Positions 1 through 9,473 of a stretch of DNA of 64,000 bases are shown here, piece by piece (within the stretch, counting starts at the first letter, position 1; each line of letters begins with the position of its first letter). The DNA is taken from positions 7,782 to 71,781 of the IMG/VR virus record IMGVR_UViG_3300038809_000021; one strand, written 5' to 3'. The stretch is from a virus. The notes beneath the pieces were generated by a model. It searched no databases. It was not told the DNA's origin and was given only the letters and a program-made list of their open reading frames with translations. The position numbers were made by a program, and so were the translations under genes.

Positions 1-1633
1 CGAAGCCCGGTGTCTCTTTGATGATCCGCATGCACTCGATGCTGTGACTGTTCGTGTGGTTGTTCCAGTTATCGACGAACAGCACAACGAAGCAGATGTT
101 CGGGCCTTTCTTCTTGGCCCGCAGACCACGACCGATACGCTGGCGCACAGCAACTTCTGCTTTGCCGCCCCCGGCGAGGATCACCTGACCAACAGAGGGC
201 ACGTCAACACCGACGTCCAGGATGGTGGTGCCGATCAGAACGTCCAGCTTGCCCGCGCCCAGTCGATCAAGTGCAGCCTGACGAACCTCCTGACTGTCCT
301 CGCCCCTGATGAATTCGACCCGCAAGCCTTTCATTTTGATCAGGTTTTTCAGGATGTCGCCGTGATCGGTGCGCTGAATCAGCACCATCGACGTCAGACC
401 GTGCTTCTTGCCTTCAACGCAGACGTCCACAATCTGCATGTTCCGCCCGGTACCCTTGACGATCCCACGCTCATAGGCAGCAGGGAAGGGCATGCCCCGG
501 TTCACACCTGGTGTCGGCTTGCTGGTGATGAAGTTGAAGATCGGCTTGGCCAGGATGCCCCGGTCGATCAAAGTCTTCTCGCTCACACGAATGCCGACCG
601 GGCCAGAAGCTGCGGTCAGACGCATGTTGGCCTCTTCCGAGTCCTTCATGTTCGGCGTGGCAGTCAGCGCCAGACGGTAGTGGGCGTTCTTCATCGCATT
701 GCACAGGTCGAAGAACCCGGTACCGGACACCTCGTGCGCTTCTTCCAGGGTCAGAAAACCGATCTGCTCCAGGAAGGCGATCGTCTCGGCGCGAGTCTTC
801 GCTTTGCGGTCGGCAATGGACTGCGCTTTGTTGCGCACTTCCCGATCATTCAGCTTGTGCTTCGCCGACACAGCCTTCTCAAGAGCCTCTTTCTGAGCCA
901 GCACCTCTTTCGATGCCTTGCGCAGCAGAGACGGGTTCGACGGGATGCCGGCCTTCTTGAGAACGCGCTCGGTCTCCTTCTCCAGCATGGTGCAGTGCTT
1001 CTCGATGATCTTGTCCAGCTCAATGTCGAAGCTCGACACTTCCATTCGCGACACCAGAGTATCGACGATTGCGAAGTTCACACCGTTGGGCTGCGGTTCC
1101 CACTTGCCGTCACCCAAGAAGCCGACAGGTCGTTTGGACCCGACAGACTTGTAACCCTTCGCCATCTGATACATCAGCGACTTGCGGGTGGTGATGAACA
1201 GGGTCGGCAACTGCAAGCGCTCGCAGCAGAGCTTGAAAATCTCGCTCTTACCGCCCCCTGTTGCGATCTGAGCGGTCATACGCTTCAACTGCACCAGTCG
1301 CTTCATTGTCTCGGGCTGATAGTCGTAGCGGGCGTCAGGAGGGAAGCTGCTGACTACGGGCAGTTCAGGGCCGCCAGGTTCTGGGACTTTCTTGCCCTGA
1401 ACGATGACCCGGTACCCGCGCTTCTCAAGCGTGACACGCACCAGACGGACGAAGCCGGCTGGGAAGAAGTTCTTGTTCATGTTGAACATCGAACCATGCG
1501 CCACGCCCATACCCTTGATCCCGCTCTCGATCTTGTACGAAAGCAGTTCGTTCACAATCAGCCGGGCCTCACGGTCGGGCTCGACCAGTGCTGCCTTCAC
1601 TGCGTTGTGGACAATTTTGATCGTCGTGGCCAT
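1..1633 (-). CDS. SF2 (DEAD/DEAH-like, UvsW-type) helicase, 3' end truncated by window edge
   Basis: Manual minus-strand translation from ATG at 1633 (MATTIKIVHNAV...): motif I AQIATGGGKS, motif II FLTLEEAH, motif III ALTATP, motif V TTILDVGVDVP, motif VI RQRIGRGLR. Absent from the ORF track because there is no stop codon in the window. Confidence 0.9.
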   Translation of the reverse strand, partial: MATTIKIVHNAVKAALVEPDREARLIVNELLSYKIESGIKGMGVAHGSMFNMNKNFFPAGFVRLVRVTLEKRGYRVIVQGKKVPEPGGPELPVVSSFPPDARYDYQPETMKRLVQLKRMTAQIATGGGKSEIFKLCCERLQLPTLFITTRKSLMYQMAKGYKSVGSKRPVGFLGDGKWEPQPNGVNFAIVDTLVSRMEVSSFDIELDKIIEKHCTMLEKETERVLKKAGIPSNPSLLRKASKEVLAQKEALEKAVSAKHKLNDREVRNKAQSIADRKAKTRAETIAFLEQIGFLTLEEAHEVSGTGFFDLCNAMKNAHYRLALTATPNMKDSEEANMRLTAASGPVGIRVSEKTLIDRGILAKPIFNFITSKPTPGVNRGMPFPAAYERGIVKGTGRNMQIVDVCVEGKKHGLTSMVLIQRTDHGDILKNLIKMKGLRVEFIRGEDSQEVRQAALDRLGAGKLDVLIGTTILDVGVDVPSVGQVILAGGGKAEVAVRQRIGRGLRAKKKGPNICFVVLFVDNWNNHTNSHSIECMRIIKETPGF

Positions 1634-1715
1634 GGATCACTTCCAGTTATTCGCGTCAACAGTTATTGTACACGCTTACTGTAAGGTTCTTTCCCCCACC
1701 GAACAAGGAATTGCA

Positions 1716-2501
1716 ATGACTGACACAGATTTTTCTGACCTCGACGACCTCGATATGGACCTGAGTTCCAGCGATGTCGCCGAAGTGGATGCAGCGCTAA
1801 AAAAACTCGAGCCTGCCAAGACAACAGAAATGGAAGTCGAGTACGCCAATCCGCAAGACCTGCGCCCGAACCCCTGGAACCCCAACGGTGTCGATCCGAT
1901 CAACCAGACCAAGCTGGAAAACAGCATTCGCAAAGACGGCATCAAGCGACCGATCGTGGTTCGCCAGCTCGACAACGGCGACTTCCAAATCATCGGCGGC
2001 CAGCACCGTACCGAAGCAGCAATCAGCCTGGGCCTGGATCAAGTGCCGATCATCAATCGCGGCAAGATCACCGACGCCGAAGCGAAGAAAGAAACCCTGC
2101 TGGACAACTACCGCTACGGCACCGACAACCTCGATCGCCTGAGCGAGCTGCTGAGTGACCCGGACATCGGTGACGCTCTCGACCTGATCAGCACCATGCC
2201 AATCGACGAGGAAGAGCTGGCCGAGTATTTCAGCCACATCAAATCGGTCGATGTGGACATGGACGTTGACGAACACCTCGACGAGAAGCCCGAGGAAGAA
2301 GACGAAGCCGACACCATTGACCTGGGCATCAAGCCGGCGCGCACTCACCAGATCATCCGCTTCCGCATCAGCGTGGAAGATCAGGCCAAGCTGGCCGAGT
2401 TGATCAAGCAGACCAAGATCGACGAGGGCTACACCGAGTCGGACGACCTGACCAACGATGGCGATGCTTTGGTGCACCTGCTGCGCGGACTGCTTTCATG
2501 A
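1716..2501 (+). CDS. ParB/Srx N-terminal-domain protein (IbrB-like), acidic N-terminus
   Basis: LRPNPWNPN ... SIRKDGIKRPIVVR ... IIGGQHRTEAA ParB-like box. Start moved to ATG 1716 behind an AAGGA RBS. Confidence 0.85.
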   Translation: MTDTDFSDLDDLDMDLSSSDVAEVDAALKKLEPAKTTEMEVEYANPQDLRPNPWNPNGVDPINQTKLENSIRKDGIKRPIVVRQLDNGDFQIIGGQHRTEAAISLGLDQVPIINRGKITDAEAKKETLLDNYRYGTDNLDRLSELLSDPDIGDALDLISTMPIDEEELAEYFSHIKSVDVDMDVDEHLDEKPEEEDEADTIDLGIKPARTHQIIRFRISVEDQAKLAELIKQTKIDEGYTESDDLTNDGDALVHLLRGLLS

Positions 2502-2686
2502 GTGATGCGCAGAAAACCTTCGATGGCAATCTTGCCTTTGAGCGCGAGCAAATCATCAAGCGAGCCGTGAACAAGTCGCGCATGGAATGCCACGACAACA
2601 TTCGCACCCTGAACCCCGACCGTGATCTACGGTGGGACAACGAAGAAGCCTTTGACAGAATGGACCGCGACTATGACCGCGATTAA
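2498..2686 (+). CDS. Small hypothetical protein (62 aa) coupled between the two ParB-like genes
   Basis: ATGA overlap with upstream stop; overlaps next start; phage-like codon usage. Confidence 0.6.
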   Translation: MSDAQKTFDGNLAFEREQIIKRAVNKSRMECHDNIRTLNPDRDLRWDNEEAFDRMDRDYDRD

Positions 2687-3371
2687 ACCGCCGTACATCA
2701 AGGTCGAAGAGGACTGGGCAATCGATCGCCTGGTTCCCTACGCCATGAACAGCAAGAAGCACGAGCCGAAGCAGATCAAGAAGATCGCCGCTTCCATCGC
2801 CAAACATGGCTGGACCAGCCGGATCGTCGTTGAGCCGGACGGTACCATCATCGCTGGTCACGGCCGCCGGCTGGCTGCCATCGAGCTGTTCCAGGAAGTC
2901 GTCCCCGTTCTGGTGTTGAAAGGCATCAGCAAGGAAGACGCCCGCGCCCTGCGACTGATCGACAACAAGGTGCAGGAAGGTGGCTATGACACCGGCATGC
3001 TGAGCCTGGAACTGAAAGAGTTGGTCATGGGCGGTACCGACCTGGGCGACTTCTTCGATGTCCGCGACCTGCAATTCGCCATCGACGACCTGGGTGACAT
3101 CGACCTGGGCAGCCTGTCGGAAGACATCAGCCCCGAAGTTGAAGCCCAGACCACTCGCACTGAGGAAGAAGTCGAGAAGGCTGAGGAAGACGAGGTGTCG
3201 CTGACCCGTGCGCTGGGCATCAGCAAGATCACAGGCAAGCAAGCCCGTGAACTGAAACGCTTCGTGGGAGCGGCCCAAGACGCGTATGGGGTCGATCCAG
3301 CAGAAGCCCTGATCTGTGCCCTCGAAGACTGGGCGGCGGTGCATCTGCGCGATCAGGATGACGGGAAATGA
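2673..3371 (+). CDS. Second ParB/Srx N-terminal-domain protein
   Basis: LVPYAMNSKKH ... IAASIAKHGW ... IVVEPDGTIIAGHGRRLAA, typical of terminase-associated phage ParB-like proteins; acidic C-terminal half; no clear HTH. Confidence 0.85.
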   Translation: MTAIKPPYIKVEEDWAIDRLVPYAMNSKKHEPKQIKKIAASIAKHGWTSRIVVEPDGTIIAGHGRRLAAIELFQEVVPVLVLKGISKEDARALRLIDNKVQEGGYDTGMLSLELKELVMGGTDLGDFFDVRDLQFAIDDLGDIDLGSLSEDISPEVEAQTTRTEEEVEKAEEDEVSLTRALGISKITGKQARELKRFVGAAQDAYGVDPAEALICALEDWAAVHLRDQDDGK

Positions 3372-4006
3372 GTACCTACCTGATCAACAAGTCGTTCAAC
3401 TCGACAGTCGTGCGCAGCCGCCGGGTTCTTGAGGTCGCCGAAGGGTTTGGCCTGGGCCTGGAAGACAAGGAATTCGTGGTCTACAAAGACCTCAAGCTGG
3501 AGGTGAATCAAGGTGACTCGGTGTACATCACTGGTCAGTCGGGCTCGGGCAAGAGCCTGCTGCTCAAAGAGCTGGCTCGTCAAATCGGTGAAGAGCAAGA
3601 GATTGCCGACATCGATAAGGTTGAGCTGCGAGAGGTGCCACTGGTTGATCAGATTGGCAGCTCTACTGATGATGCCGCACGCATCCTGAACATGGCCGGG
3701 CTGAGCGATGCTTACCTGATGATCCGCAAGCCGTCTGAACTGTCTGATGGCCAGCGGTACCGGTTCCGCATCGCCAAGCTGATGGAATCGAAAGCTCGGG
3801 TCTGGGTTGCAGATGAATTCGGCGCCGTGCTGGACCGAACCACTGCCAAGCTTGTAGCATTCAACCTTCGCAAGTTTGCCCTGAAAGTCGGCGCTACGAT
3901 CATCGTGGCAACCACTCACAAAGACCTGCGTGAAGAACTGGCGCCCACTCTCTACGTGGACAAGCGCTACAAAGAGAAGGTCTTAATCGAGGTGTCACCG
4001 CAATGA
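3368..4006 (+). CDS. Soluble ABC-type ATPase (COG2401-like N-terminal part)
   Basis: Walker A GQSGSGKS, signature ELSDGQ, Walker B VWVADE, H-loop ATTH. No permease nearby. Confidence 0.9.
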   Translation: MSTYLINKSFNSTVVRSRRVLEVAEGFGLGLEDKEFVVYKDLKLEVNQGDSVYITGQSGSGKSLLLKELARQIGEEQEIADIDKVELREVPLVDQIGSSTDDAARILNMAGLSDAYLMIRKPSELSDGQRYRFRIAKLMESKARVWVADEFGAVLDRTTAKLVAFNLRKFALKVGATIIVATTHKDLREELAPTLYVDKRYKEKVLIEVSPQ

Positions 4007-4362
4007 GCGCAGCAGAACTGATCCTGGTCGACTTCAAAAAGGGCAAAGTGAAAGAGCGCCGCCAACTGCCTGAGAAAGATGCAGTGCCGGCCGACGCCTG
4101 GAAAGCTTTGAAAGACCCGGACTTCAAAGAGTGGGTGAAGGGTGTTGCAGCGACAGCCGAAGCCTGCGCTCTGAACGGTGGCAACTGGAGACGCATGATC
4201 ATGATCATGTGCGACCAGCCGCCAGGCTCGGATGAGTTCTGCATGACGTTGTGGGACAACAGCACCATTCAGAGCGAGGACGTGATCGACATCCTGAGCG
4301 AATCGTTGGGCAAGGTGACTGACGCCATGATCAACGAAGACGAGGGGCCGGAACTCGCATGA
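4003..4362 (+). CDS. Hypothetical protein between ABC ATPase and GNAT
   Basis: 119 aa ORF with ATGA overlaps on both sides. Confidence 0.7.
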   Translation: MSAAELILVDFKKGKVKERRQLPEKDAVPADAWKALKDPDFKEWVKGVAATAEACALNGGNWRRMIMIMCDQPPGSDEFCMTLWDNSTIQSEDVIDILSESLGKVTDAMINEDEGPELA

Positions 4363-5234
4363 ACACCGAAGACATTCTGATCGAACGGGACGACAAGGCT
4401 CGTCCCCGCTTTTCGCTGATGGATGACATGCGCGTCGAGCGCGGCACGAAAGCTGACTGGGATGCACTCCATGACCTTCACTACAAGGCTGAAAATCTAC
4501 CTGCTGGGCCTCGTTTTTGGCGTTGCGTCACTGGCGACGGCGACCTGGTTGGTATCGTTGTGTTTAGCACCGTCAGCCTTCTTCTTGCTCCCCGACATCA
4601 GGTGTTCCCGAAGCTCAAGCCTGGCAACGACAGCCATTTTACGAACGTCCACCGTGCCACGTTTCTGAACAAGAACTTCAAGCGGGCGGCGCGCATCGTG
4701 ACGGACACGATGTACCGCGGCATTGGGGTCGCGTACAGGATGGTGAACCTGGCCATGCGAATGGAGGGGATGCGGTTCATCGAGATTCAGTCGTCGATGT
4801 CCAAGTTCAACCCGTTCGACGTGAAGGCCGGCTTCAAGCATGCACACCTCAAGCCGGCGGCCGCCTACGTCCAGGGCTTGAAGTTCATGCGCAGCCAGTT
4901 CAGCGGACACCCTGCTGACCACCAGGCGATCATGGACGAACTGAAAAGCTTCACGCCAGGGCACCGCGCTCGGGTGATGAAAGCCATGCAAGAGTTCTAC
5001 TACCGTCACAGCGCACGCGAGAAGACGGGCGGGAACCTGAACGTGGGCACGGGCAAAGTCGGGCTGATGGAGCCGGCACACCTGCTCAGAGAGCTTCAAC
5101 AGCTCGTGTTTGCCAGCCCAGTGTACGGAATCTGGACCAACCCGGACCTGGGTCGTGAAATTCCACAGAGCCTGCCGATCCGCGCATTCGATCTGCAAGG
5201 CCCAAATGAACCATTGAGGTTGGATTTGCTATGA
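4359..5234 (+). CDS. GNAT-fold acetyltransferase-like protein (COG2401-like C-terminal part)
   Basis: Acyl-CoA-binding motif RIVTDTMYRGIGVAYRMV; N-terminal DWDALHDLHY; C-terminal NPFDVKAGF; operonic with the ABC ATPase. Confidence 0.75.
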   Translation: MNTEDILIERDDKARPRFSLMDDMRVERGTKADWDALHDLHYKAENLPAGPRFWRCVTGDGDLVGIVVFSTVSLLLAPRHQVFPKLKPGNDSHFTNVHRATFLNKNFKRAARIVTDTMYRGIGVAYRMVNLAMRMEGMRFIEIQSSMSKFNPFDVKAGFKHAHLKPAAAYVQGLKFMRSQFSGHPADHQAIMDELKSFTPGHRARVMKAMQEFYYRHSAREKTGGNLNVGTGKVGLMEPAHLLRELQQLVFASPVYGIWTNPDLGREIPQSLPIRAFDLQGPNEPLRLDLL

Positions 5235-5569
5235 AGCCACTGACATTCAAACAGCGCCAGGTCATCAAGATCGTGATCATGGGCAACATCGACGTCAAGG
5301 GAACCCGGCTGTCGAACGTGGACGTGTACCAGTTGAAGAACAGGCTCGACTACGAGACATCCCGGGATTCGCTGATGTGTAGTCTCGCGATCCTGGAGAA
5401 GCAGGGTTGGATTGTGAAAGCGGGGAAAGAACTCCGGGATGGGAGACAGAAGCAAACTCTTGCTCCGACAGCTCAAGCGATCCGGGTTATGAATCCGACT
5501 CCAATCAGTGTCCCGGACTATGAAGAGATTGAACTGGATGATGACATCGTAGAGTTGGCGATGCTGTAG
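5231..5569 (+). CDS. Winged-helix DNA-binding protein, possible late regulator
   Basis: Pattern SLMCSLAILEKQGWIVKAG ... QTLAPT resembles a wHTH recognition helix plus wing; last gene before the late leader. Confidence 0.55.
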   Translation: MKPLTFKQRQVIKIVIMGNIDVKGTRLSNVDVYQLKNRLDYETSRDSLMCSLAILEKQGWIVKAGKELRDGRQKQTLAPTAQAIRVMNPTPISVPDYEEIELDDDIVELAML

Positions 5570-5651
5570 GTATCCGGTGCTGTCAGCGCCTGCTTTCCCC
5601 TATTTCTTCTTGTTCTTTTAGCAAGCTAGTAGTTAGAAGGGAGAGCAGCAG

Positions 5652-5657
5652 TATAAT
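5652..5657 (+). promoter_or_regulatory. Perfect -10 hexamer TATAAT of putative late promoter; no canonical -35
   Basis: TATAAT at 5652-5657 in the 290 bp intergenic gap before terS. Confidence 0.45.
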
Positions 5658-5813
5658 CATCGAACGCAAGGGTCTTTACAAGTGGCAGTGTTAAACTACC
5701 TCTTATTGGCTGTTAATGGACGTCGAATAGGCTCAAATTTGACAGCGGCCCGGCGTTCGGGTCAAATGGATGGCGCCTACCTCCTAATGGGCAAATCGCT
5801 GAGTGAGAGTCAA

Positions 5814-5847
5814 GGCTGATAGGGTGCAACCTGTCAGCCATTTTTTT
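5814..5847 (+). terminator. Intrinsic terminator immediately upstream of terS
   Basis: Stem GGCTGATAGG / CCTGTCAGCC (one G-U), loop GTGCAA, then A and T7. Confidence 0.75.
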
Positions 5848-5862
5848 GAGAACGAGAAACCC

Positions 5863-6567
5863 ATGACTGAGACGACTGAGCCAACCCCGGTACCCGATGA
5901 AGATGGTGAAGCCAGCAAGGCCAAGCGACTCACGCCCAGGGAATACGCTCGTGCGAAAACCATGTGGGAATCCGGCGAGTACAGCCTGAGCGAAATTTCC
6001 GAAACGGTGAAGGTCAGCGCAACAGCGTTGAGCCGCCGGTTCAAGCGCGACACCATTTCCAAAGGCAGCGCGGCCAAGAAAGTATCGGCCGCCGTCAAAC
6101 GTGCCATCGAGAAGACCAGTGCTGCGCAAGCGGAAGAACTGGCCTCGACTGCGCACGACATCAAGATGCTGGCGCTCAAGTCCATTGAGACCTTCAACAA
6201 GCTGAACATCCAGCAGGTGATGAAGCAGATCAAGGCCGGGAAACCCCTGGCTGAAATTCAGGGCGACTTGAAGACCCTGGAAATCGCCTCGAAGATTGTC
6301 ATGCTGAACTACGGTACCGGCGCCCGCATCCTGGGTCTCGATAAAGACCTGAGCATGGACGACACATTGCCAGAGCTGCAAATCCACATCATGACCGAGA
6401 ACGACGTGGCCGAACTCCGCGAGCAACAGCGCCGCGAAGAAGCAGAAGCCAACGGCGAGCTGATCGACGAAGACGAAATCATGGCCCACCTGAGCGACGA
6501 AGACATCAAAGCTCTGGATGAAGCCTTGGATGATGAAGACATCGTGATCGAAGGCGAAGATGACTGA
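5863..6567 (+). CDS. terS: Terminase small subunit
   Basis: N-terminal HTH (WESGEYSLSEISETVKVSATALSRRF), coiled middle, acidic tail; TGATG overlap with terL. Confidence 0.8.
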   Translation: MTETTEPTPVPDEDGEASKAKRLTPREYARAKTMWESGEYSLSEISETVKVSATALSRRFKRDTISKGSAAKKVSAAVKRAIEKTSAAQAEELASTAHDIKMLALKSIETFNKLNIQQVMKQIKAGKPLAEIQGDLKTLEIASKIVMLNYGTGARILGLDKDLSMDDTLPELQIHIMTENDVAELREQQRREEAEANGELIDEDEIMAHLSDEDIKALDEALDDEDIVIEGEDD

Positions 6568-7838
6568 TGAAAGTCACCTCAGCCAACCCATCCAGCCTAC
6601 GTCCCCTGGTCTCCAAGATCGGTCTGCACCCAAAGCAGGCCGAAGTGTTCCTGGACACAGCCCGATTCCGAGTCGTAGTTGCCGGCCGACGCTGGGGTAA
6701 GACTGCGCTCGCCAAAACGGAAATGATCCAGCGAGCCAAGATTCCTGGACAGAAGATTTGGTACATCGCCCCGACCTATCGGATGGCGAAGCAGATCATG
6801 TGGAACGACCTCAAGGCTTCGATTCCCCGCAAGTGGATTGCGCGGGAACACGAGACCGAAATGTCGATCACCCTGAAAAACGGATCCATCATCGAGTGCA
6901 AAGGCGCAGACAACCCGGATACGCTCCGGGGTGTGGGTCTGAACTTCGTGGTGATGGACGAATTCCAGGACATCCGCAGCGACACCTGGACCACGATCAT
7001 TCGACCTACCCTGGCGAAAGACCGCGGCGAAGCACTGTTCATTGGTACCCCGAAAGCCTACAACCAGCTCTACGAGGTGTATCAGTTCGGCCAAGACGAG
7101 GCTCGCAAAGCCTGGTCCAGCTATCAGTTCCCAACGATCACGTCGCCGTTCATTCCCGAGTCCGAGATTATCGAAGCTCGCCGAGACATGGACCCGCGCA
7201 CGTTCCGTCAGGAATTCGAGGCGTCGTTCGAAACCATGTCGGGCCGGGTTTACTATCCGTTCGACCGAAACGTTCACACCAGCCCGGACATCAAGTTCAA
7301 TCCGCAGCGCCCAATCTGGGTAGGGGTGGACTTCAACATCGACCCAATGTCCGCGGCGATCATTCAGCCTCAGACCAATGGGGAAATCTGGGTGGTCGAC
7401 GAAATCTTCCTGCACAACTCGAACACCGAGGAACTGTGCGAAGAGCTGGAGAAGCGTTACTGGCGTCACATGAGCAACATCACCATCTTCCCCGACCCGG
7501 CCGGTGCTGCACGTCAACACGCCCGCGGTGAATCTGACCTTGAGATTTTCAGGCAGAAGGGGTTCCGTCGAATCAAGTTCCGTCGCAAGCACCCGCCTAT
7601 TGCAGACCGGGTGAACAGCGTGAACCGAATGCTGAAAGACGCGGCCGGCTTCACACGCATGAAAGTGAACAGCGGTTGCACGAACGTGATCGAGTCGCTG
7701 GAGCAGACGCTCTACAAGGCGGGGTCGCGTGACATCGACAAAGGGCAGCGTATGGAACACATCACGGACGCCCTGGGTTATGCGGTGGAACTGGAGTTCC
7801 CGATCAAGAAAATCATCATCGCCGGTCATTCACTATAA
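6567..7838 (+). CDS. terL: Terminase large subunit
   Basis: Walker A AGRRWGKT, Walker B FVVMDE, IGTP coupling motif, RNase H-like GVDF ... DP ... HITDAL. Confidence 0.95.
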   Translation: MKVTSANPSSLRPLVSKIGLHPKQAEVFLDTARFRVVVAGRRWGKTALAKTEMIQRAKIPGQKIWYIAPTYRMAKQIMWNDLKASIPRKWIAREHETEMSITLKNGSIIECKGADNPDTLRGVGLNFVVMDEFQDIRSDTWTTIIRPTLAKDRGEALFIGTPKAYNQLYEVYQFGQDEARKAWSSYQFPTITSPFIPESEIIEARRDMDPRTFRQEFEASFETMSGRVYYPFDRNVHTSPDIKFNPQRPIWVGVDFNIDPMSAAIIQPQTNGEIWVVDEIFLHNSNTEELCEELEKRYWRHMSNITIFPDPAGAARQHARGESDLEIFRQKGFRRIKFRRKHPPIADRVNSVNRMLKDAAGFTRMKVNSGCTNVIESLEQTLYKAGSRDIDKGQRMEHITDALGYAVELEFPIKKIIIAGHSL

Positions 7839-7843
7839 ACGCT

Positions 7844-7875
7844 TGCACATTGGCGTTGATGTCCTTTACCATAGT
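7844..7875 (+). promoter_or_regulatory. Possible sigma70 promoter upstream of portal
   Basis: TTGCAC-18 nt-TACCAT in the terL-portal gap. Confidence 0.35.
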
Positions 7876-7898
7876 TGCACTCAAAAGTGGGAATTCCC

Positions 7899-9473
7899 GT
7901 GGATAGCAAGACAGCTAAAGCCATCGTTGATCGCAAGCACCCTCTGTACCTGGAGCTGGTGCCGCATTGGGATTTCCTCGAATCCAGCTATAAGGGTGGG
8001 CGCTCCTGGTTCAAGACGAACATCTTCCGCTACATCAAGGAAGGTGACATCGAGTACAAGGACCGTGTAGAGCGCGCATACCGCTTCAACCACACCCGCG
8101 AAACCGTTGACCTGGTGAACAAGTACCTGTTCCGCGCACCCATCGCTCGCAAGATCGACTCGGTGCCGGATGCAGTGAAGACTTTCTGGGACAAGGTGGA
8201 CGCGACTGGTCTGGACATCAACGAGTTCATGCGGATCGTCTCGCTCAAGTCCTCGATCTTCGGCCGCCCTTGGATTGTCATCGACAACCGTGTGACCGAA
8301 GCCGTTGCAAGCGAATCCGAAAACCCGCTCGACCTCTACGCCTATATCGTTCCGCCTCAACAAGTGCCTGACTATGCGTTCGACGACGCCGGTGAGCTGC
8401 TGTGGGTGCTGATCGAAGAACACGTTCGTGACGATCAAGACCCAGTGAATGGCAGCGGCGAGATTCGCAAGCGCTATCGTCTGTGGACTCGTATGCAGTG
8501 GGCTCTGATCGAATTCGTGAAAGGCCCAGGCAAGTCTGGCGGCAAGTGGGAAATGAGTCGTAGCGGCGATCACAACCTGGGCCTGGTCCCGGTGGTCCCT
8601 GCGAACAACAGCGTCGTGACCGACAAGTGGGATTGCCCAGCGTTGATCGCTGACGTGGCCTACCTCGACCGCGCTGTCTCGAACTATGCCTCGAACCTTG
8701 ACGCAATCATCCAGGACCAGTCGTTCTCGCAGTTGGCCATGCCAGCGCAGGGCGTTCTGCCAGGTGACGATGCGTACAACAAGGTTCTCGAAATGGGCAC
8801 CAAGCGTGTGTTCCTGTACGACGGTGAAGGTGGCGCAGCGCCCCAGTTCCTGAGTCCAGACCCAACACAGGCTTCGCTGATCCTCTCTGCCATTGGCCAG
8901 TTGATCAACGAGATTTATCACAGCGTCGGCTTGGCCGGCGAACGCACCAAGCAAGACAACAGCAAGGGCATCGACAACAGTTCCGGTGTAGCAAAAGCGG
9001 TAGACTTCGAGCGGGTGGTTGCATTACTGTCCTCGAAAGCTGACGCCCTGGAAGTGGTTGAGTACAAGATGCTGCAAATTGTCTGCGCCTGGGCAGAAGC
9101 AGAAATGCCGAAGATCGATGTGGTCACCTACCCTGTAGAGAGCCAGTTCGACGTTCGGACGCTGTACGACGAAATCGACGTCGGTATGAAGCTGCGGTTG
9201 ATGGGCTTGCCTCCACTGATCCTGGAAGAGCAAATCAACCGTCTCGTGCCGAAACTGTTCCCGGACTTGTCCGAGGACGTGTTGAAGGCGATCAAAGCCG
9301 AAGTGAAGAAGTGGGCAAACGAGCCGAGTGAGCAAGAGAAAGCTGACGCGGCAAACGGTGCAGGCTCCGAAGCTTCGAAAAAGGTCGTCGAAGAAGCCAA
9401 GCGCAATCGCGCTGACGCCTCTGCAAAGAAAACCGATACCCAAAGCCGAGAGACCGGCAAAACCAACGGCTAA
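7899..9473 (+). CDS. Portal protein
   Basis: About 525 aa directly after terL; N-terminal HW..LESSYKGG pattern; GTG start at 7899. Confidence 0.8.
   Translation: MDSKTAKAIVDRKHPLYLELVPHWDFLESSYKGGRSWFKTNIFRYIKEGDIEYKDRVERAYRFNHTRETVDLVNKYLFRAPIARKIDSVPDAVKTFWDKVDATGLDINEFMRIVSLKSSIFGRPWIVIDNRVTEAVASESENPLDLYAYIVPPQQVPDYAFDDAGELLWVLIEEHVRDDQDPVNGSGEIRKRYRLWTRMQWALIEFVKGPGKSGGKWEMSRSGDHNLGLVPVVPANNSVVTDKWDCPALIADVAYLDRAVSNYASNLDAIIQDQSFSQLAMPAQGVLPGDDAYNKVLEMGTKRVFLYDGEGGAAPQFLSPDPTQASLILSAIGQLINEIYHSVGLAGERTKQDNSKGIDNSSGVAKAVDFERVVALLSSKADALEVVEYKMLQIVCAWAEAEMPKIDVVTYPVESQFDVRTLYDEIDVGMKLRLMGLPPLILEEQINRLVPKLFPDLSEDVLKAIKAEVKKWANEPSEQEKADAANGAGSEASKKVVEEAKRNRADASAKKTDTQSRETGKTNG

Follow-up and report, generated by a model that had tools for sequence, protein, structure and literature searches.

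We analyzed a 64,000-nucleotide (nt) stretch of viral DNA, positions 7,782 to 71,781 of the IMG/VR record IMGVR_UViG_3300038809_000021, which is called the window below. The window DNA is 93.5% identical to that of Pseudomonas phage hairong and about 77% identical to that of phage nickie (Nickievirus, 112 kb, Pseudomonas syringae); it represents a P. syringae phage of the Nickievirus type. The subject of this work is an operon at 1716–5569, located upstream of the terminase genes terS and terL, in which the genes of an ABC-type ATPase and a GNAT-fold protein are accompanied by those of two ParB-like proteins and a small winged-helix protein. The following features, some with the E-values of their family matches, are found at this locus.

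2–1633, minus strand: SF2 (UvsW-type) helicase (Helicase_C 1e-12, DEAD, ResIII; PHROG 16)
1716–2501, plus strand: ParB1 (ParB_N 7.9e-14; PHROG 723, 5.5e-57)
2498–2686, plus strand: 62-aa open reading frame (ORF) separating ParB1 from ParB2, no family match
2673–3371 (alternative GTG start at 2622), plus strand: ParB2 (PHROG 930, 9e-78)
3368–4006, plus strand: soluble ABC-type ATPase, 212 aa (ABC_tran 2e-14; PHROG 293)
4003–4362, plus strand: acidic 119-aa ORF, occupying a variable slot that separates the ABC gene from the GNAT gene, no family match
4359–5234, plus strand: GNAT-fold protein, putative acyl-CoA transferase, 291 aa (PHROG 886, 7e-126; AlphaFold2 model)
5231–5569, plus strand: small winged-helix protein, putative DNA-binding, 112 aa (PHROG 900; family profile)
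5814–5849, plus strand: intrinsic terminator, with a 10-bp stem (6 GC pairs) and a T run behind it
5863–6567, plus strand: small-terminase-like DNA-binding protein, terS (PHROG 867, 4e-54), its stop overlapping the terL start
6567–7838, plus strand: terminase large subunit, terL (Terminase_6N; PHROG 2, 7e-54)
7875–9473, plus strand: portal (the homologous position is annotated as portal in hairong and nickie)

The seven genes of the operon, as given by ORF listing and translation, are all encoded on the plus strand. Five of the six junctions between them are ATGA-type overlaps of 4 nt, and the junction 2686/2673 is an overlap of 14 nt, provided that ParB2 begins at the ATG at 2673. The original prediction, made from the sequence alone, described seven translationally coupled genes immediately before terS. 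The seven ORFs do overlap, and the predicted gene set (two ParB-N proteins, a permease-less ABC ATPase, a GNAT fold, and a winged helix) is borne out as well. The word “immediately” has to be corrected, since a spacer of 293 nt (5570–5862) intervenes, and the terminator that it carries ends about 15 nt 5′ of the terS start.

An exhaustive, profile-free search located homologues of the 291-aa protein within longer proteins, in which Pfam places ABC_tran ahead of a GNAT domain, the GNAT models covering the region that aligns with the phage protein. The phage GNAT protein matches the C-terminal half of these fused ABC-GNAT proteins, and the phage ABC ATPase matches the N-terminal half (44% identity to the fused protein P0166, E 7e-54). 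Because each half of the fused proteins has its specific homologue in one of the phage genes, the two genes are best read as a split form of a fused COG2401-type ABC-GNAT enzyme, and the earlier proposal of a “split COG2401” is thus supported by sequence homology. The phage form is not a single polypeptide: its two genes (3368–4006 and 4359–5234) are separated by the 119-aa ORF, which is detected in close relatives only.

In the ABC ATPase, the Walker A, LSDGQ, Walker B, D-loop, and H-loop motifs are conserved across 77 homologues. No permease family was matched among the seven operon proteins in Pfam or PHROGs; with a GNAT protein as its partner and no permease in the operon, the ATPase is not part of a transporter.

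The 291-aa protein has no match in Pfam or NCBIfam, and its family profile, compared by sequence with the Protein Data Bank (PDB), gave chance matches only (E ≥ 0.4). Its AlphaFold2 model (predicted local distance difference test score, pLDDT, 85) adopts a GNAT fold (Foldseek probability 1.0; VIA Z 10–12 over residues 20–262). The RGxG acyl-CoA loop is invariant (R120, G121, and G123), and the isoelectric point of the protein is 9.65. Residues 163–254 form a family-specific helical insertion of about 90 aa, which yielded a pLDDT of 84 when folded alone. A helix-turn-helix (HTH) or other known domain could not be assigned to this insertion after separate folding and a PDB search. The family profile of the 112-aa protein matches winged helices of the MarR/PadR/LexA type (MarR-type 2eb7, E 1e-4), and Pfam winged-helix families are matched in members of that family.

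ParB1 consists of a ParB N-terminal (CTPase-fold) domain, an acidic linker, and a conserved C-terminal segment. The linker and the segment are shared with ParB2 (window 2300–2498 and 3190–3368), and a 50-nt DNA match of 70% (2282–2331/3173–3222) reflects the paralogy of the two genes. ParB2 matches Pfam ParB_N weakly (4.9e-3) and PHROG 930 strongly (9e-78). The GERR motif is replaced by GGQHR in ParB1 and GHGRR in ParB2, and both proteins retain the Asn of box III. In the PDB, the match of the ParB1 family profile is limited to the N domain of Noc/ParB (E 1.3e-13), and that of the ParB2 profile to the ParB/Noc N-terminal CTPase domain (E 1.4e-9); the matches of both profiles to solved ParB/Noc proteins stop ahead of the HTH part. 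Comparison of the two profiles with solved structures detected neither a canonical HTH nor the C-terminal dimerization domain of ParB. The C-terminus of ParB1 (THQIIRFRIS...ALVHLL) has a strand-helix-helix look and could be a ribbon-helix-helix DNA-binding motif. The 62-aa ORF that separates the two genes is seen in close relatives only. The annotations of nickie and a Rhizobium phage show a comparably sized ORF at this place.

ParB2 also resembles the ParB-N domain found at the N-terminus of ParB-methyltransferase fusions. It matches PHROG 498 (3.8e-29) at positions 36–173 of 633 only, which is the N-terminal ParB part, and PADLOC MTase_II (8.6e-22) at positions 10–162 of 436 only. No methyltransferase catalytic domain is present in ParB2, as its matches are confined to the N-terminal part of the methyltransferase profiles. 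In the nickie record (NC_042091.1), gp158 (4322–5014), a ParB-N protein without a methyltransferase domain, bears the RefSeq name “DNA methyltransferase”, and gp155 (5968–6849), which is the GNAT protein, is named “ABC transporter ATP-binding subunit”. Both names go back to PHROG family labels that stem from fusion proteins.

The ParB proteins can be connected to the enzyme genes through fusions found in other viruses. Single-chain proteins combining ParB-N, ABC, and GNAT domains exist (P0194, P0199, P0243, and P0262), from which it follows that the ParB proteins belong to the same machine as the ABC and GNAT proteins. The ParB domain of the triple fusion shares 33–37% identity with the N-terminal end of proteins annotated as adenine DNA methyltransferases in haloarchaeal viruses. 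In other fusions, ABC-GNAT is preceded by a DnaA-like domain (P0174) or followed by a TFIIB repeat (P0170), so that all extra fusion partners of ABC-GNAT are DNA-engaging domains. As far as sequences can indicate, these fusions show that ParB-N, ABC, and GNAT function together.

This arrangement bears directly on the current annotation, according to which the ParB genes serve plasmid partition and the ABC protein is a transporter subunit. Such a reading accords with GenBank/RefSeq product names, and Pfeifer et al. (2021), who treat related phage-plasmids, class two ParB genes there as partition genes (PMC7969092). The ParB N-terminal domain is indeed common to the operon and to ParABS systems. 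However, the matches of the window proteins cover this N-terminal part only and end before the HTH, no parS array was found in window positions 1–9000, and no ParA (PF13614, PF01656) was found in the 94-kb record or in the complete genomes of nickie and hairong. Moreover, the module occurs in Nickievirus genomes without ParA and in phages of 30–60 kb. Since ParA is absent, the ParB matches lack an HTH, and ParB-enzyme fusions occur elsewhere, we consider a partition system highly improbable.

The conservation of the module was assessed in a lineage sample of 80 IMG/VR loci (contigs of about 95–120 kb when long), 61 of which are distant loci. The order helicase (minus strand), ParB1, ParB2, ABC, GNAT, terS, terL, and portal is colinear in all 80 contigs. 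The helicase gene, which is divergently transcribed and cut off by the window start, keeps its position in 55 of the 61 distant contigs. Median identities to the window among the 61 distant loci are as follows.

ABC 59%, terL 58%, GNAT 51%, portal 49%
helicase 42%, ParB1 41%, ParB2 39%, terS 29%

The ABC protein is therefore as conserved as terL. Among cultured phages, a terL identity of at least 55% and the presence of the GNAT gene pick out the same 31 records, which comprise Nickievirus, Rhizobium RHEph10-like phages, Stenotrophomonas/Xanthomonas phages, and SSU5-like phage-plasmids of Salmonella, Klebsiella, and E. coli. In the SSU5/Nickievirus/RHEph10 lineage of about 110 kb, the module is a strict core block. 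This status, together with a conservation like that of terL, is at least as compatible with an integral step of the phage cycle as with an accessory anti-defense gene. The gap between the ABC and GNAT genes ranges from 8 to 2166 nt among the 80 loci; since the ParB2-ABC and ABC-GNAT gaps vary by up to 1–2 kb, these positions are insertion slots. The contents of the slots differ: DUF2829 and hypothetical proteins are found in Rhizobium phages (e.g., RHph_Y2_11, 4183–5907 of its locus), and the acidic 119-aa ORF at 4003–4362 in the window.

The association with the terminase, which the original prediction had noted, recurs in several unrelated virus groups. The order ParB-N, ABC(-GNAT), small genes, terL, and portal is found in Streptococcus pyogenes prophage 315.4, Gordonia phage Mariokart (genes 1–4), and Leptospira phage LE4 (gp14–gp19). 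Viral contigs with fused forms have a terL detectable by BLAST within 3.5 kb in 46 of 80 cases. A 32-kb viral contig carries a triple fusion followed by a 168-aa ORF, terL, and portal (L169). Fused ABC-GNAT genes are also abundant in metagenome-assembled genomes of Bathyarchaeia, often several per genome, where they lie within structural modules of tailed proviruses, and a Terminase_6N-type terL adjoins the fused gene in 45 of 80 loci, usually directly upstream. These genomes hold several copies of the tailed-provirus block (loci L006–L085), which in one case (L013, 675–9446) consists of tail completion, tube, tape measure, and tail proteins, small ORFs, terL, and ABC-GNAT. In many IMG/VR contigs, no further gene lies between ABC-GNAT and the end of the contig or provirus. 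A different arrangement occurs in a 97.6-kb viral contig (L234, 8001–13659), in which the fused gene is located inside a replication module, in the order DnaB, primase, RecJ, ABC-GNAT, and a Pol III alpha-like polymerase, with no adjoining terminase.

The adjacency to terS, terL, and portal in many lineages would suit a GNAT protein whose acceptor is a protein of the virion or of the packaging machinery (terminase, portal, capsid, or scaffold) or else a small molecule required inside the capsid (e.g., a polyamine). The structural matches also include acetyltransferases of the SpeG and N-terminal types. On the other hand, the ParB-N, DnaA-like, and TFIIB-like fusions and the polymerase-adjacent case point to DNA and not to the capsid, and this explanation is quite improbable.

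The spacer before terS invites another explanation. Besides the strong intrinsic terminator, it contains a TATAAT-like box at about 5652, and these elements suggest a regulated, perhaps antiterminated, entry into the late operon. With a terminator in the spacer, the operon and the packaging genes need not share one transcript. A promoter-like and terminator-containing leader directly downstream of an operon that includes a winged-helix protein could mean that the module is itself a regulator of the late operon, in which nucleotide-gated ParB-fold clamps and the winged-helix protein steer transcription or the start site of packaging, and ABC-GNAT acts as an acyl-CoA/ATP metabolic sensor or as a modifier of the regulator or the terminase. 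In line with this, the ParB-ABC pair in prophage 315.4 (L252, 2962–6784) adjoins an ArpU-type late regulator, which lies upstream; an ASCH-domain gene is located there between ABC and terL. Nevertheless, the winged-helix gene is detected in fewer relatives than the enzyme genes (44 loci), the fused forms of archaeal proviruses often lie 3′ and not 5′ of terL, and the strictly conserved catalytic motifs favor a true enzyme. We regard a regulatory role as improbable.

Among known systems, specific homology links the module to COG2401-type proteins (“ABC-type ATPase fused to predicted acetyltransferase domain”, MK0520-like; PHROGs 293/11143 and 886), with which it shares both domains. Homologues of the 291-aa protein already carry this name at JGI and in the Cyrano record. 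The window form differs from the COG2401 type in being split, with a variable ORF between the halves, and in having two ParB-N proteins and a winged-helix protein in addition. We know of no function for the COG2401-type family; no publication on the function of the ABC-GNAT/COG2401 family was found, and the Nickievirus papers do not discuss the module. A PADLOC search did not place the proteins in a defense system, returning only generic P-loop or ParB-domain matches and none for the GNAT protein.

Two further kinds of enzyme share features with the module. TmcA/NAT10 likewise couple an NTPase to a GNAT domain and acetylate a nucleic-acid base with acetyl-CoA and ATP; however, their ATPase is of the helicase type, in contrast to the ABC type found here, and their substrate is RNA (cytidine N4). 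The GNAT family profile aligned to E. coli TmcA with an hhalign probability of 0.2%. Kinship with NAT10, considered after Foldseek matches, was rejected, because these matches were absent from the top 50 of the all-against-all VIA comparison and were unsupported by hhalign against TmcA. The Mom protein of phage Mu is a phage enzyme with a GNAT-like fold that modifies DNA adenine late in infection, but it acts without an ATPase or ParB partner. Its structural match to the GNAT protein (Z 10.5, root-mean-square deviation 3.6, 141 residues) is no better than that of dozens of GNATs, and hhalign (0.1%) does not place the GNAT family among Mom sequences.

A parallel to the ParB part of the operon is offered by DpdB/DpdA, DndB, SspE, and the ParB-N/methyltransferase fusions, which also couple a ParB-N domain to an enzyme altering DNA. 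The ParB-fold ATPase DpdB is required for DNA-base exchange by DpdA (PMC10164549). The GxxR-type motif, DGQQR in DpdB, is represented by GGQHR and GHGRR in the window proteins, for which NCBIfam listed no DndB/DGQHR family at E-values up to 0.01. These ParB-fold modification systems differ from the module in their partner, which is a transglycosylase, a sulfur-transfer enzyme, or a methyltransferase instead of ABC-GNAT.

The fusions, their DNA-engaging partners, the packaging and replication neighbors, and the precedent of a ParB-fold helper (PMC10164549) are the reasons for which we favor a DNA-directed, ATP-gated acyl-CoA transferase. The strict conservation of the module, the invariant ATPase and acyl-CoA-loop motifs, and the basic character of the GNAT protein also speak for it. 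Specifically, we propose, with a probability of roughly 40%, that ParB1, ParB2, the ABC ATPase, the GNAT protein, and probably the winged-helix protein form one DNA-directed enzyme complex that acylates viral DNA. By analogy with ParB-fold NTPases elsewhere in DNA modification, the HTH-less ParB-N proteins would be nucleotide-gated modules that engage DNA and place the ABC ATPase dimer on replicated viral DNA, while the winged-helix protein may provide site recognition. The ATP cycle of the ABC dimer would gate the basic GNAT subunit, which would then move an acyl group from acyl-CoA to viral DNA before or during packaging by the neighboring terminase. The leading guess for the acceptor is the exocyclic amine of a base; the choice of a DNA base as the acceptor is tentative. 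It is doubtful whether the module is, in the most specific form of this proposal, an ATP-driven DNA acyltransferase writing an N-acyl mark (e.g., one like N4-acetylcytosine), with the ParB-fold proteins limiting the mark to viral DNA. To our knowledge, neither the chemistry of DNA N-acylation nor such a ParB-based targeting logic has been described for any virus. What the sequences and models show directly is the gene set with its folds and intact catalytic motifs, the relation of split to fused forms, the fusion with ParB, and the repeated placement beside terminase and sometimes polymerase genes. That the proteins form a complex and act at DNA is inferred, as are the donor of the acyl group, the atom that accepts it, and an advantage such as escape from restriction.

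Several observations weigh against the acylation of viral DNA. The match of the 291-aa protein to the GNAT fold is generic, and its top structural neighbors are acetyltransferases of proteins and small molecules. Mom (Z 10.5) does not stand out from the other structural matches, and the hhalign probability is below 1% for Mom and TmcA alike. The 92-residue insertion of the GNAT protein has no PDB match or DNA-binding signal (Foldseek E > 1; best VIA Z 4.5), and a search of window positions 1–9000 revealed no repeated parS-like inverted repeat beyond chance. Owing to the terminator between the operon and terS, the timing of expression may differ from that of packaging. No ParB_N match was obtained in the scanned neighbor families of Bathyarchaeia, where the small ORFs matched nothing, so that absence is not established. 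Finally, the acetylation of a DNA-bound protein fits the genomic context equally well.

The last point leads to an alternative in which the complex is targeted to DNA in the same way, but the acyl group goes to a DNA-bound protein. Candidates are nucleoid proteins of the host (HU and H-NS/MvaT, or, in archaea, Alba and histones) and a DNA-binding protein of the phage. Lysine or N-terminal acetylation would then strip or remodel the bound proteins, allowing viral replication and packaging. The closest structural neighbors of the GNAT protein are acetyltransferases of protein N-termini and lysines (NatA/Naa10, RimI, Ard1, and HP0935; Z 10.8–11.3), although such Z-scores fail to separate GNAT subfamilies. 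The linkage to both terminase and polymerase genes suits an enzyme that clears bound proteins off DNA, and the DNA-engaging fusion partners suit one that is active at DNA without DNA having to be its substrate. However, the module has no linked gene for a candidate substrate, and the bacterial and archaeal hosts in which it occurs differ in their chromatin proteins. A protein acceptor is, in our opinion, rather unlikely.

Whichever acceptor is used, the window instance is an ordinary member of a recurring, uncharacterized module. This module is among the most conserved blocks of a lineage to which Salmonella, Klebsiella, and E. coli phage-plasmids that are common in the clinic belong; its relatives precede the terminase in streptococcal prophages, actinophages, and a Leptospira phage, and archaeal proviruses carry relatives as well. 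Its genes are already in GenBank under misleading names, being routinely labeled “ABC transporter”, “partition protein”, and even “DNA methyltransferase”. If the module modifies DNA or DNA-bound proteins, it would represent a new enzymatic step in the maturation of virus DNA, and the two “ParB” genes of phage-plasmids would be read differently. Should it be a DNA acyltransferase, such an activity would span viruses from prophages of Gram-positive bacteria to the tailed viruses of archaea.

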